Assembly (NCBI GenBank): GCA_000004985.1
Contig: GG738925.1
Reading direction: 5' to 3' (one strand)
DNA length: 64,000 bases
From: Naegleria gruberi
Taxonomy: Eukaryota
The notes beneath the pieces were generated by a model that was not told the origin of the DNA, made no database searches, and was given only the letters and a program-made list of their open reading frames with translations. Within the stretch, counting starts at the first letter, position 1, and each line of letters starts with the position of its first letter. Shown one piece after another: positions 19,855-23,958 of the stretch. Position numbers and translations under genes: made by a program.

Positions 19855-22800
19855 TTACTTTGTTAGGCTTCCACTAGTGAAGGAAACTGTTTGCTGTTGA
19901 ATAATAACTTGTTCGGAAACGGATTTTCTTCTTTGGTTGGTTATTTTGTGTTGTTTGCATAATTTCTCACCCACATTCTTACAACATTTGGAACACATCT
20001 TGTTGGAACAATTAATAGAAACTTTGATCAAAGTGCAGCCATCATTTACGCACTGTACTTTCTTCTCGGAATTAACAATGGAATTAACAGTGGTGGGATT
20101 GAACTCTGTGTTGTTGCTAAGCTGCATAGTATTTCCAGAATCTTGACTAGCATTTGCTTGTGAATTATTAATTATTGGTACATTACTTTTGTTCTTCTTC
20201 TTATTCTTTTCTAACTTCTCGGCTATTTTAGTATGAAACACACAACCAGAATCCTCACAACAAGCAAAACAAGAACCTGATAAACAATCAATTGAAATAA
20301 CCTCAGTCTTTTTGCAAAAAGGACATTTGCTTTTTCCTCGCAATGCAGTAACAGTAATAACACATTTCTCCAATAGTCTTTCAAATTCCACTGATAATTC
20401 AGAATTATCTCCATGCATTATATGACCTTTACAATCATATTTCAAAAAATTTGGATAATTAGGAGCCAATATTTTGGATTCAAATAAGGATAACCATTTG
20501 GAATATTTTGGATGCTCCATAATTGCCTTTGGAATTACACTTGGAACAATTGGAATATCTTTCAATGCTTTTTCTACATTGGATTTTACACAAGATCTGT
20601 TGCTATAATTTTGTTTAACTACTTCACTCAAAACAGATCTCCGAATGATTTCAACTATTGCTGATTCAGTTTTGTGATTAGTATTATTTTTAGCAATTCT
20701 TTTTTCCTTTGAGAATGCTTGTTCACTCTTTTCTGCAGAAAGGTGATACACATTAACCTTCCAAACCAATAATGAAATATGGACCCACAAATCATGAAAA
20801 TGCAGCCCAACAACATTATTTCCCCATCTCATTACTGCCAATGTACCAAACACGAATACTTTAACACAGAATTGCTGATTTTCAATATTGGAATGTTCAT
20901 TTTTGGAATATAGGAATCTTAATATATCTCGCCAATATAACATGAGTAGTTCGGCGTTTTCTCTCTCTTGATTAACGAATGGAAGAACACATACATCATA
21001 TTTGCAAAATACTAATCTCCAATCTCCATTTGACATGGTGCTAGATTTTGCATTCAATCTGATATTTTCATCAAGAGCAGCATAACATTTCTCCTCTTGA
21101 AAGTCTTTCTCTTTTTGGAATAGACTAAACATTCCTGCTCCTATTCCTTTAGTTACATGCAGTATTTCAGAGCCATTTTCGTATTCATCAAGCCCTCTTT
21201 CTTTTAATGATGTGGATTTACCATCATTCACTAAATGAGGAAGACCTACTTGACCATCTGGGAATTTTTTGGTAGCATAGAGATTTTGTAATGATTTCCC
21301 ATTGTTTAAACAAGAAAGGCATTGCTCATAATCCCATTGATTTCCTGTAAATGGTAATGGGCATTTTGAACAACGATAATCACCTCCAACCTTATGATTC
21401 CATCTTTTAGAAGCATTACTATAATCAGCGCTCATGAATTTCAATTTAAAGGTTGCTGTCTTCTCATGTAAAGGCATTTTAAAATCCACTAATTGAGTGT
21501 ATTGATCCCTTAATAACTGTGAGATTGTTTTGACATTATATTTTGTTTCAGAGCACCATACATAGGTAAGTGGTAGTGGTTTAGTAACATAATCATATCC
21601 CTCTTTGTTAAATAGTTTTTCATCCCATAATAATTGAATGCTAACTTTTGTTAAGGATTGATTTAGCATAGCAGTACCATCCATCCAATCTATCAACTTG
21701 TATCCAATAACCAAATCTGCCACTTGTTTGATGAACCCATTTTGATCACATTTTAACAAATGGTGGATAAGTACTGGAATAATATTTCGCATTACTCCAT
21801 TTACCATTATTTCTTTTCCATTTAGATTAATTGGAACTTTAATTGGATTACCAATATATACTGCAAGTGGATTCTTCTTAAAAGCCTCACACCATTCATC
21901 AACAGAATACAAAACGGATTCATCAATATCTGTTTCAATTTCTTGTCCAATGCACCAAGCTTGCAAATCTTCCTTCATCTCCTTTTCATCAAAGAAAGGC
22001 ATATATATGTCATCATCAAGTTTAACATTTCTTCTTTGAAAACATCTAATCGGTGGTTTTTCACCAATTTGAAGGAAATAACCAAATCTACATATTTCAT
22101 CTCCGAATTTTTGAGTTATTTTCAAAGTCCGAGCAACCTCTTGCCATTTTCCTTCTTTTTCAACAAGTAATGAGCCACCAACTTTATCTACCATATCACA
22201 TATTTGTTGTAAATCCATCTCATTATTTAAATAATGATCAATATACAAATATTTCAAAATTGTAGGTATATCTGTATTGAGTGAGTGTTTTTGCTGATTC
22301 TCAAATGATTTTAAAATTTTGTCATACATTTCTGGATTGATCTTATTAAGAATATCATTGCTTTTTGCTTTAAGTTCAGCTAGAATATTTGTTGCAAGTA
22401 TTTTCATAGATACAGAGCTATTATTAATCATATCACATACATACTTCTCAAATATTGGATCGTGGAAACAAGCTCTAATTCGAGATAATGGATTTTTGAG
22501 ATATGTATTGGAAATTCTCTCCTTATTAGTTTGTTTGGAATTAATTATATTCATTAATTTAGCTGTAGACAGAGGAGTGTTTGTTCCGAAAGTTTGAAGA
22601 GGAGCCATTAATTGTTTCCTCTTTCTAATAGTTGCATTTACCTGCTTAATAATCCTTTTCTTTTGAATTTTTGAATTAGATTTGAACCATTTTGCATCCT
22701 TTACAGTGTCTTGCAGATCTTTCTTTTTAGCCATTAATTCCATAGTATCACTAGGAGAAGCATTTACTATTAATGAATTTAATGGAATACATTTTGCTCC

Positions 22801-23331
22801 CAAAATTTTCAATTGATTCTTTTTGGAAGTAACCTTGTCAGCTTTACGTTTTAGAACTAGAACACTTCTTTGATTATCATCATGAGCAATAATGGAATAG
22901 GTTTGATTTTTTCTACTTGCAATCAGTGTTTCGAATGGAACAGTTTCAATATGTTGTAATTCTTCCTTTCTGATTTTATAATTTTTAACCTTTTTAATTT
23001 TGTCAATGCATAGGGCAACATATTTTCTCTTCAACCATTGAAATACTCTATTACAACAAAATCCTTGATGAATGTGTTTCTTTAATTCTTTGGATGCAAG
23101 ATTTCTTCCTGTTTTATTCAATAAAAAAGCTCTGTACCAACGTTTCTTGTTGTGAGTTGTTTGACAGCAAACACAAACAGTTCCTTTATCAATTAGTTGT
23201 GTTGATCGTGATGACAACTTACACATTTTTTTCCCAAGTTTCTTTCTGACAGTTCTAGAGAAAATTAGAATAATTTGTGCAAATTTTATTTTTAGCAACC
23301 AGCTAAAAAAACTGAGCTGAAAATTCCTCAT
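19855..23331 (-). CDS. large single-exon cysteine-cluster protein (about 1,158 aa); candidate transposon-derived protein, function unknown
   Basis: Uninterrupted 3.5-kb ORF (the track start is TTG, and the first ATG is near 23331) in a genome where most genes are spliced. N-terminal CVCCQ...CCNRV motif, central DYRCSKCPLPF...CLSC motif, and C-terminal CPFCKK...CLSGSCFACCEDSGCVFH and CVNDGC...CSNKMCSKCCKNVGEKLCKQH clusters. No catalytic motif could be assigned by eye. Confidence 0.45.
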   Translation of the reverse strand: MRNFQLSFFSWLLKIKFAQIILIFSRTVRKKLGKKMCKLSSRSTQLIDKGTVCVCCQTTHNKKRWYRAFLLNKTGRNLASKELKKHIHQGFCCNRVFQWLKRKYVALCIDKIKKVKNYKIRKEELQHIETVPFETLIASRKNQTYSIIAHDDNQRSVLVLKRKADKVTSKKNQLKILGAKCIPLNSLIVNASPSDTMELMAKKKDLQDTVKDAKWFKSNSKIQKKRIIKQVNATIRKRKQLMAPLQTFGTNTPLSTAKLMNIINSKQTNKERISNTYLKNPLSRIRACFHDPIFEKYVCDMINNSSVSMKILATNILAELKAKSNDILNKINPEMYDKILKSFENQQKHSLNTDIPTILKYLYIDHYLNNEMDLQQICDMVDKVGGSLLVEKEGKWQEVARTLKITQKFGDEICRFGYFLQIGEKPPIRCFQRRNVKLDDDIYMPFFDEKEMKEDLQAWCIGQEIETDIDESVLYSVDEWCEAFKKNPLAVYIGNPIKVPINLNGKEIMVNGVMRNIIPVLIHHLLKCDQNGFIKQVADLVIGYKLIDWMDGTAMLNQSLTKVSIQLLWDEKLFNKEGYDYVTKPLPLTYVWCSETKYNVKTISQLLRDQYTQLVDFKMPLHEKTATFKLKFMSADYSNASKRWNHKVGGDYRCSKCPLPFTGNQWDYEQCLSCLNNGKSLQNLYATKKFPDGQVGLPHLVNDGKSTSLKERGLDEYENGSEILHVTKGIGAGMFSLFQKEKDFQEEKCYAALDENIRLNAKSSTMSNGDWRLVFCKYDVCVLPFVNQERENAELLMLYWRDILRFLYSKNEHSNIENQQFCVKVFVFGTLAVMRWGNNVVGLHFHDLWVHISLLVWKVNVYHLSAEKSEQAFSKEKRIAKNNTNHKTESAIVEIIRRSVLSEVVKQNYSNRSCVKSNVEKALKDIPIVPSVIPKAIMEHPKYSKWLSLFESKILAPNYPNFLKYDCKGHIMHGDNSELSVEFERLLEKCVITVTALRGKSKCPFCKKTEVISIDCLSGSCFACCEDSGCVFHTKIAEKLEKNKKKNKSNVPIINNSQANASQDSGNTMQLSNNTEFNPTTVNSIVNSEKKVQCVNDGCTLIKVSINCSNKMCSKCCKNVGEKLCKQHKITNQRRKSVSEQVIIQQQTVSFTSGSLTK

Positions 23332-23958
23332 TGCTTTCTTTACCTTTTTTCTCAATAACCAGAGAGAGAACTGCGGAGAACTGCAAGATTTGGATTGTTT
23401 ACATCAAATAATAGTGATAATGGTAAGATCAGTTTCTAACTCGTGTTTCTGTACGTTTCCAACAGAGTTAAAGTTAAGGTAAATTACGCTCAGAAACAGC
23501 TGGTAAATTTCCACTTTTTTCCATTATTTTTTAAAAAAAACACAAGTTTATGCTGTAGCAAAGGACATCCGATACACGAGTAGTTATTCGAAACTGTTAA
23601 AAAAAAATATGAAACCACGCTACGGACCCAACCATCTTTTATCTGGTGCAACAAGGAAGGAAACAACTGCAAAAACCACTGCACCAACTAACTCTGAAGC
23701 TTTAATCATGGAAAGGAAGTTATTCATGATTGAATGCAGAATTGAAATTTTGAATTGTCAATCAATGGACGAAAGCAAGAAGGAAACTTTAGAATATTAC
23801 GAGAATAAATTGGAGGAAGTTAGGAAATTTCTAATAGAAACTGATGAAGAATTTACTCAACAAGTTATTGAAGAAAATTCCCTTCCCAATTTGGAATTAT
23901 TGAAAATTAAATTACTTGATTATTAAGTTTACAATTTTACAAATTTGTTGGAATTCCT

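Follow-up and report, generated by a model that had tools for sequence, protein, structure and literature searches.

A 64,000-nucleotide stretch of the genome of Naegleria gruberi (NCBI GenBank assembly GCA_000004985.1, contig GG738925.1; we refer to the whole stretch as the window) contains on its minus strand, at 19855..23355, an uninterrupted reading frame of 1,166 codons when counted from a TTG. What does this frame encode, and is it a gene of the host or of a mobile element? A preliminary description made from the letters alone proposed an uncharacterised transposase or a domesticated transposable-element gene, and presupposed a fungal host where the source is an amoeboflagellate (heterolobosean). 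We find that 19739..23580 on the minus strand is very probably an intact and apparently autonomous cut-and-paste transposon, and that the open reading frame (ORF) encodes its transposase, a DDE enzyme of the kind represented by RAG1, Transib and CACTA (the CACTA/Mirage/Chapaev/Transib, or CMCT, clade). The first half of the proposal is thus upheld and the second is not, since the ends of the element are intact.

The protein is shorter than the reading frame. Sequence comparison indicates that the true start is almost certainly the ATG at 23226, giving a protein of 1,123 aa, because this is the start in the NCBI model and because the resulting N-terminus aligns with the starts of the proteins from Naegleria fowleri and Willaertia magna. 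An intronless ORF at 19855-23355 is present as had been reported, its length of 1,166 aa having been counted from the TTG. The coding sequence and the residues of its catalytic core are located as follows.

19855..23226, minus strand: transposase coding sequence, 1,123 aa plus stop in one exon; 100% identical to the NCBI entry 'predicted protein [Naegleria gruberi]'
20467..22029, minus strand: RAG1/Transib-like catalytic core, aa ~400-920, with predicted RNase H fold, CxxC and HxxxxH zinc motifs and a helical insertion
21679..21681, minus strand: D516, predicted to be the first of the two catalytic aspartates, in motif DWxDG; no variation in the core alignment of 15 sequences, and conservation of at least 90% in that of 30
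21424..21426, minus strand: D601, predicted second catalytic aspartate; invariant, hhalign partner RAG1 D708
21361..21372, minus strand: C619-x2-C622, predicted zinc-binding CxxC, 18 residues past D601; invariant or nearly so, hhalign partners RAG1 C727/C730
20779..20796, minus strand: H811-x4-H816, predicted zinc-binding HxxxxH; invariant, hhalign partners RAG1 H937/H942
20722..20733, minus strand: E832 and E835, motif SxExxE, one of them the predicted catalytic glutamate; E835 shows no variation, and position 832 holds E or D in at least 90% of sequences

Conservation of these motifs was derived first from 30 aligned relatives and afterwards from 15 core segments, with identities of 17-46%. 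Along the chain the series reads DWxDG (D516), ET (E560), D601...K607...GGxxRC619xxC622, DxLH690xxKG, LYxH811xxxxH816 and SxE832xGE835. Over 15-30 relatives the two aspartates, CxxC, DxLH, HxxxxH and SxExxE vary little or not at all, and the uninterrupted N. gruberi ORF has kept all the conserved residues. No catalytic family, DDE included, had been recognisable by eye in the single sequence; in the alignments a conserved DDE signature is present.

An AlphaFold2 model based on the 30-sequence alignment has a predicted local distance difference test score (pLDDT) >90 over aa 400-920, with D516 lying on a beta strand of an RNase H fold. Structure prediction had been suggested earlier as a check for such a fold, and an RNase H-type transposase core is what is predicted. 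When the model was compared with the PDB using Foldseek, the top 16 matches were RAG1 and the Helicoverpa Transib transposase (E 3.4e-10 to 1.8e-5, probability 1.0), with Hermes as the next family at E 0.13. C619 and C622 are predicted to form a zinc site together with H811 and H816, with D516, D601 and either E832 or E835 making up the active site. As modeled, the protein is a transposase of DDE type with an RNase H fold, sharing the fold and active-site layout of RAG1 and Transib.

The mouse RAG1 core sequence was reconstructed and verified residue by residue against PDB chains. Alignment of our core profile with RAG1 by hhalign is colinear, and pairs D601 with D708, C619/C622 with C727/C730, DxLH with IDALH, H811/H816 with H937/H942 and SxExxE with SEGNES (E959/E962). 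RAG1 E962 is paired with E835 in one run and with E832 in the other, a shift of three residues. D516 (DWxDG) would be the counterpart of RAG1 D600 (CDGMG), matched by eye only. The protein has the same order and spacing of residues as RAG1, ProtoRAG and Transib, namely D, CxxC 18-19 residues later, D-x-L-H, a helical insertion, HxxxxH, and E about 20 residues further on. The order D, D, CxxC, HxxxxH, E is diagnostic of the CMCT clade and RAG1 (PMC12730594). The three acidic residues of that clade are found here on a predicted RNase H fold (D516, D601 and E832/E835; core pLDDT >90), and its C(2)C and H..H motifs, placed after the second D and before the E, correspond to C619/C622 and H811/H816.

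The family extends well beyond N. gruberi. An exhaustive phmmer search of 1.84 billion representatives identified 67 relatives at E <1e-3. Cluster look-up provided a full-length protein from W. magna (38% identity) and several from N. fowleri, and further relatives are a transcript of the amoebozoan Planopodium desertum and many short environmental eukaryotic contigs. A word-indexed protein search returned essentially the query or one fragment only, missing the 48%-identical N. fowleri and 38%-identical W. magna proteins, probably through blindness to low-complexity words. A negative result from such an index therefore does not make an AT-rich, low-complexity protist protein an orphan. No match to related loci was obtained in an alignment-based search of metagenome contigs and viral contigs.

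It is the copies in N. fowleri that reveal the behavior of the element. One 90%-identity cluster contains N. fowleri proteins on three chromosome-scale contigs, and a fourth contig carries a more divergent pair of adjacent gene models. The locus L002 (VFQX01000006.1, gene FDP41_010369) is a full copy, a unit of 3,801 bp. In L005, sequence equivalent to L002 9713-10401 (100% identity) runs straight into that of 13387-13513 (99%), so that this copy is an internal-deletion derivative that has retained both ends. L003 (VFQX01000017.1, 9587..11381) shares L002 11985-13513 at 99.7% identity, with an inverted 266-bp segment (L002 11642-11907) abutting this 3' 1.5 kb; it is a truncated and rearranged copy, and its arrangement suggests an aberrant transposition or repair event. 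L002 and L003 differ at only four positions in ~1,530 bp, which makes the transposition or duplication in N. fowleri a very recent event. L004 (VFQX01000022.1, 9852..~13009; FDP41_001141 and FDP41_001140) has 67-70% DNA identity to L002. It is degenerate, lying in three reading frames and annotated as two genes, and is a second divergent copy or subfamily. The search for paralogues that had been proposed earlier thus finds near-identical extra copies, including a deletion derivative, in N. fowleri, and none in the N. gruberi window.

The identity between L002, L003 and L005 ends exactly at CTCGATACCCGTATGTC... and ...GACATACAAAAATCGAG (CTCGAT...ATCGAG). These are terminal repeats of 17 bp that match at 13 of the 17 positions with a variable middle, as in N. 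gruberi, and they define the ends of the element in the window.

19739..23580, minus strand: complete DNA transposon of 3,842 bp, its ends set by homology to the N. fowleri element
23564..23580, minus strand: 5' terminal inverted repeat CTCGTGTATCGGATGTC (minus-strand reading), ending at 23580; fits the N. fowleri-derived pattern CTCGNNNNNNGNATGTC
19739..19755, plus strand: 3' terminal inverted repeat, CTCGTGTTGTGTATGTC on the plus strand, with the element end reading ...GACATACACAACACGAG on the minus strand; 13/17 match to the 5' repeat
23581..23582, no strand: target-site duplication TA, 5' side, in the arrangement ta-element-ta
19737..19738, no strand: target-site duplication TA, 3' side, in the same arrangement

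The inverted repeats of the N. gruberi element are 17 bp long and imperfect (CTCGnnnnnnGnATGTC), and were seen only once the N. fowleri copies had been compared; an untargeted search of the flanks for inverted repeats gave only AT-rich pairs at chance level. When the pattern CTCGNNNNNNGNATGTC was derived from the N. fowleri copies and then searched for in the window, exactly two sites were found, inverted around the ORF, against a chance expectation of 0.03. None of 100 shuffles of the window gave two matches, and chance inverted repeats were rejected as an explanation. Terminal repeats and target-site duplications around the ORF, which the preliminary description proposed to look for, are thus both present.

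Similar ends are found in other members of the family. In W. magna (L001, 9523..13359) the orthologous gene is enclosed by inverted repeats of 37 bp (~32/37 match, CTCATTrGGTTwATGTCAAAAAA...) flanked on both sides by ca; close to its 5' end this gene has a genuine GT..AG intron of 72 bp. The environmental locus L007 ends in CTCAACAATGTTATGTTTT and CTCAACGACGCTATGTTTT, and L008 has a matching 3' end, the ends of both being of the CTCAAC...TATGT type. A more distant environmental member, L006, has different 18-bp repeats (CGCGAG...) with tt on both sides. L004 has a good 5' repeat, CTCGTGTCCTGTATGTC, and a doubtful 3' candidate with one mismatch. In N. fowleri the duplication is tg on each side of L002 and at on each side of L005. 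Five elements are therefore bounded by a 2-bp duplication, with TA in N. gruberi, TG and AT in N. fowleri, CA in W. magna and TT in L006, which lies within the 2-5 bp of CMCT elements. By a rough hand estimate, given the base composition, the probability of five out of seven elements having such a duplication by chance is ~5e-5. TG, CA and TT, three of the five, are non-palindromic; they accordingly count as direct repeats rather than as a continuation of the inverted ones. L007 and L004 both have ta as their left flank and gc as their right, which is probably coincidence.

We also looked inside the ends. A repeat search for subterminal repeats gave only runs of A/T, with no convincing recurring binding motif. 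In N. gruberi, N. fowleri, W. magna and L004 a TGTGAG/TGTGAC/TGCGAG motif is present some 25-40 bp in from the 3' end, at ~19756-19780 in the window, ~13473-13496 in L002 and ~13320-13335 in L001, and may be a subterminal site bound by the transposase. Similarity detected by tblastx continues beyond the stop codon, between 19725-19823 of the window and 13429-13527 of L002.

There is no sequence shared outside the element between the window and the W. magna or N. fowleri loci. Synteny is thus not conserved, in line with the earlier transposon reading. The attributes of an autonomous transposon with terminal inverted repeats are divided between the species, with repeats, target-site duplication and ORF in N. 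gruberi, and multiple copies and a deletion derivative in N. fowleri only. Taken together, the ends, the duplications, the N. fowleri copies and the non-syntenic loci are therefore those of a transposable element, and argue against domestication.

A number of observations weigh against this interpretation. By tblastn there is no second copy in the window, and the 90%-identity cluster of the N. gruberi protein has one member only; with one visible copy, mobility in the N. gruberi genome is therefore not demonstrated. The full-length N. fowleri copy L002 has an in-frame TAA at codon 673 (12017-12019). The annotated 75-bp 'intron' of FDP41_010369 contains this TAA, and the segment that it removes aligns with coding sequence of the homologues, so that the gene model is either a disguised pseudogene or the product of an assembly error. 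L003 has CAA at this position, and from the near-identity of the two copies the stop mutation is therefore younger still than the duplication. No matching duplication is found at the flanks of L004, nor any flanking duplication at those of L007. The usual CA..TG termini of CMCT elements are absent, the ends being 5'-CTC...GAG-3' in N. gruberi, N. fowleri, W. magna, L007 and L008. At the level of sequence the links to RAG1 are weak. The hhalign comparisons have E values of 0.02 and 0.003 with probabilities of 2-10%, and when the PDB sequences were searched with the core profile zebrafish RAG1 was the sole long match (E 0.46 over 315 positions). The same search with the single query gave nothing, and with the full-length profile a spurious phage match only. 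The assignment of the family is therefore based mainly on predicted structure and motif order.

Could the gene have been co-opted by the host, as a single-copy transposase gene with a cellular role such as programmed DNA rearrangement or ARID-mediated chromatin binding, within an element that is now immobile? We consider this improbable. It would account for the one copy seen in N. gruberi, for an intact ORF that is conserved between Naegleria and Willaertia (37-48% identity) and in which no catalytic residue or zinc ligand has been lost, for a gene-dense setting (36 bp and 29 bp to the neighboring ORFs) and for the ARID-like domain, ARID domains being typical of chromatin proteins. Yet the gene lies within intact inverted repeats and a perfect 2-bp duplication, its homologues occupy different, non-syntenic loci in each species, and the extra copies in N. 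fowleri are 99.7-100% identical and include the internal-deletion derivative. Moreover, the full-length copy in N. fowleri carries a nonsense mutation, and host-level constraint is therefore not evident there. The preliminary description had guessed at another affinity for the enzyme, that of a Kyakuja/Dileera/Zisupton (KDZ) or Plavaka type of transposase. The cysteine clusters may resemble the CxC modules associated with KDZ elements. Against this, none of 30 members matches a KDZ or CxC Pfam model at E up to 10, RAG1 and Transib are the closest structural matches, and the target-site duplication is 2 bp where it is 8 bp for Zisupton and Dileera and 7 bp for Kyakuja (PMC12730594). KDZ membership is ruled out by the Pfam results, the length of the duplication and the fold. 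Plavaka is now placed in the CMCT clade, with which it shares C(2)C and H(3-4)H motifs (PMC12730594), so that the suggestion was correct in the broad sense; no specific link to Plavaka, whose elements are known from fungi and were compared here by description only, was brought out. We judge an assignment to KDZ or specifically to Plavaka to be highly improbable.

The transposon in the window might also be an ordinary member of a catalogued superfamily, as represented for instance by EnSpm, Mirage or Chapaev entries of Repbase from amoebae; this we regard as rather unlikely. Mirage, which is known from nematodes, is reported to have a 2-bp target-site duplication, as found here. For the clade as a whole the published range is 2-5 bp (PMC12730594). 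CMCT elements are on record from Acanthamoeba and Dictyostelium, represented in a Repbase-derived tree by Chapaev-1..3_ACa and EnSpm-1_DDi (PMC12730594), and one of 30 relatives has a faint match to Pfam Transposase_21 (PF02992, E 0.076). On the other side, the same tree has no Naegleria entry, and the searchable literature gave no description of a CMCT, KDZ or Transib element in Naegleria, Willaertia or Heterolobosea. No Pfam family covers the core in the 30 longer relatives, whether the limit is set at E 0.01 or at E 10, and the termini are unlike the CAC... ends of EnSpm, ESTA and Transib.

Comparison with each named group points the same way. CACTA/EnSpm elements have CACTA termini, a 3-bp target-site duplication and a Pfam Transposase_21 (PF02992) transposase; membership is not supported here, given different termini and duplication and the faint PF02992 match in one of 30. 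Transib and RAG have a target-site duplication of 5 bp, and Kapitonov and Jurka reportedly described in 2005 both this 5-bp duplication and CACGGTG-like heptamer termini for Transib. The element in the window differs in its 2-bp duplication, CTC...ATGTC termini, ARID-like domain, C7H clusters (seven cysteines and one histidine) and heterolobosean host, and the Pfam RAG1 model has no match in 30 members at E up to 10. Unlike the RAG systems it has no RAG2-like partner, as it holds a single ORF. The CMCT clade in general is similar in having one large transposase gene within short inverted repeats and a short duplication, and differs in that the ends here are CT..AG and no significant Pfam Transposase_21 or RAG1 match is found. 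In the literature consulted the ARID-like domain and C7H clusters are undescribed for CMCT lineages. ESTA and Mirage share a two-base duplication with this family, by description. ESTA elements have TA duplications and a transposase tied to RAG1 by HHpred; by description they differ from this family, in which TG, AT, CA and TT also occur, in having CACC... ends and fungal hosts (PMC12730594). CMCT duplications are of 2-5 bp, and termini are 5'-CA..TG-3' in most cases, though not universally (PMC12730594). In the absence of a significant RAG1, Transib or CACTA match, and with unusual ends, no named superfamily therefore fits. Judged by Pfam, the literature and the Repbase-derived tree, the family is probably a new variant, a new lineage of the known CMCT kind. 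A bolder proposal is that the N. gruberi element is the founding, intact member of an undescribed lineage of superfamily rank, RAG1/Transib-like (CMCT), restricted to free-living amoeboid protists, and characterized by CTC...ATGTC ends, a 2-bp duplication, an ARID-type domain that binds the ends and C7H clusters. We put this forward tentatively, at a little under an even chance; its hosts would be Heterolobosea, one or more amoebozoans and numerous environmental eukaryotes.

Outside the core the transposase has four further features, some of which might contribute to recognition of DNA.

23044..23175, minus strand: N-terminal cysteine motifs CVCCQ...CCNRV, aa 18-61; no variation at C21, C57 and C58 among the three aligned species
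22111..22320, minus strand: ARID-like helical domain, aa 303-372; sub-threshold Pfam ARID match and Foldseek matches
20233..20325, minus strand: C-terminal cysteine cluster 1, aa 968-998, C-x2-C-x9-C-x4-C-x2-CC-x4-C-x2-H
19948..20052, minus strand: C-terminal cysteine cluster 2, aa 1059-1093, a second module of the same kind

The positions of the cysteine motifs were given correctly in the preliminary description, with CVCCQ and CCNRV close to the N-terminus, and with CPFCKK...CLSGSCFACCEDSGCVFH and also CVNDGC...CSNKMCSKCCKNVGEKLCKQH close to the C-terminus. The N-terminal motifs, which lie in a region of low pLDDT, are a possible zinc-binding module for DNA recognition. Each C-terminal cluster comprises its seven cysteines and one histidine, none of which varies between N. 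gruberi, N. fowleri and W. magna; the clusters are therefore not fortuitous. The submotif C-x4-C-x2-CC-x(4-8)-C-x2-H occurs once or twice in distant environmental members. The clusters match no Pfam family and have low pLDDT. The sole Pfam match of the N. gruberi protein is to ARID (PF01388), at 22.0 bits (E 2e-4) with a cutoff of 24.1 bits. The N. fowleri protein, labelled 'ARID domain-containing protein' in UniProt, has a match at the equivalent position that is likewise below the cutoff (21 bits, E 4e-4), and the W. magna orthologue has no Pfam match, ARID included. When aa 271-400 were modeled separately and compared with the PDB, the six best Foldseek matches were ARID domains, weakly (E 0.9-2.1, probability 0.6-0.8). 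We regard aa 303-372 as ARID-like, a candidate AT-rich DNA-binding module that is not proven.

These features suggest how the element might move. The N-terminal cysteine motifs and the ARID-like domain would recognise the 17-bp termini, CTC-N8-9-(A/T)ATGT(C), and AT-rich subterminal DNA, and the C-terminal C7H clusters would perhaps join in recognition of the ends. The core would then nick each end of the element at its boundary. By analogy with RAG1 and Transib the element could be released through a hairpin on the flanking DNA, and the chemistry is probably the nick-then-hairpin pathway of RAG1. The 3'-OH ends of the element would be joined to a new target with a 2-bp stagger, giving a 2-bp duplication. 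The N. gruberi copy may be active today.

The element lies in a crowded part of the window. It lies 36 bp past the stop of a plus-strand ORF ending at 19703 and 29 bp ahead of a plus-strand ATG at 23609, with flanking stretches of 19704..19738 and 23581..23608. Without the insertion the intergenic gap would be only ~61 bp; the element may thus cut the downstream gene off from its promoter, or provide one. An ORF with a MACPF/perforin domain (E 2.8e-7) is found at 25019..26503 on the minus strand, 1.4 kb from the element, and past it are an alcohol dehydrogenase ORF and an ankyrin-kinase ORF. The transposase ORF had been described as the longest of the window, and as unusual here in being a single exon. 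Neither description is borne out, as there are 25 uninterrupted ORFs of at least 250 aa in the window, several of 600-930 aa, and that at 2067..5795 on the plus strand is longer, at 1,242 aa. The latter has an apurinic/apyrimidinic (AP) endonuclease, a reverse transcriptase (RVT_1, E 2.8e-26) and an RNase H, and by its sequence is ORF2 of a non-long-terminal-repeat (LINE-type) retrotransposon. The adjoining 411-aa ORF upstream (835..2070, plus strand) may be its ORF1.

What was an anonymous 'predicted protein' thus becomes part of a mobile element with exact ends, and the same family has been mobile very recently in the human pathogen N. fowleri, where a premature stop was hidden in a fictitious intron by an annotation error that is now exposed. 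The finding extends the RAG1/Transib-type transposases to Discoba, with a new combination of domains (ARID-like and C7H) and atypical termini. It is a solid if incremental gain in the known diversity of transposons, introducing no new principle, and it should help to trace the diversification of the RAG1 catalytic core and of the modules by which it recognises DNA. To our knowledge there are few genetic tools for Naegleria. The N. gruberi copy is intact and, at 3.8 kb with a single ORF and ends of 17 bp, compact, and is therefore a realistic candidate from which to develop a transposon-based one. If the element does found a lineage of its own and the copy is active, it would provide an early-branching reference point for the evolution of the RAG1-type core.

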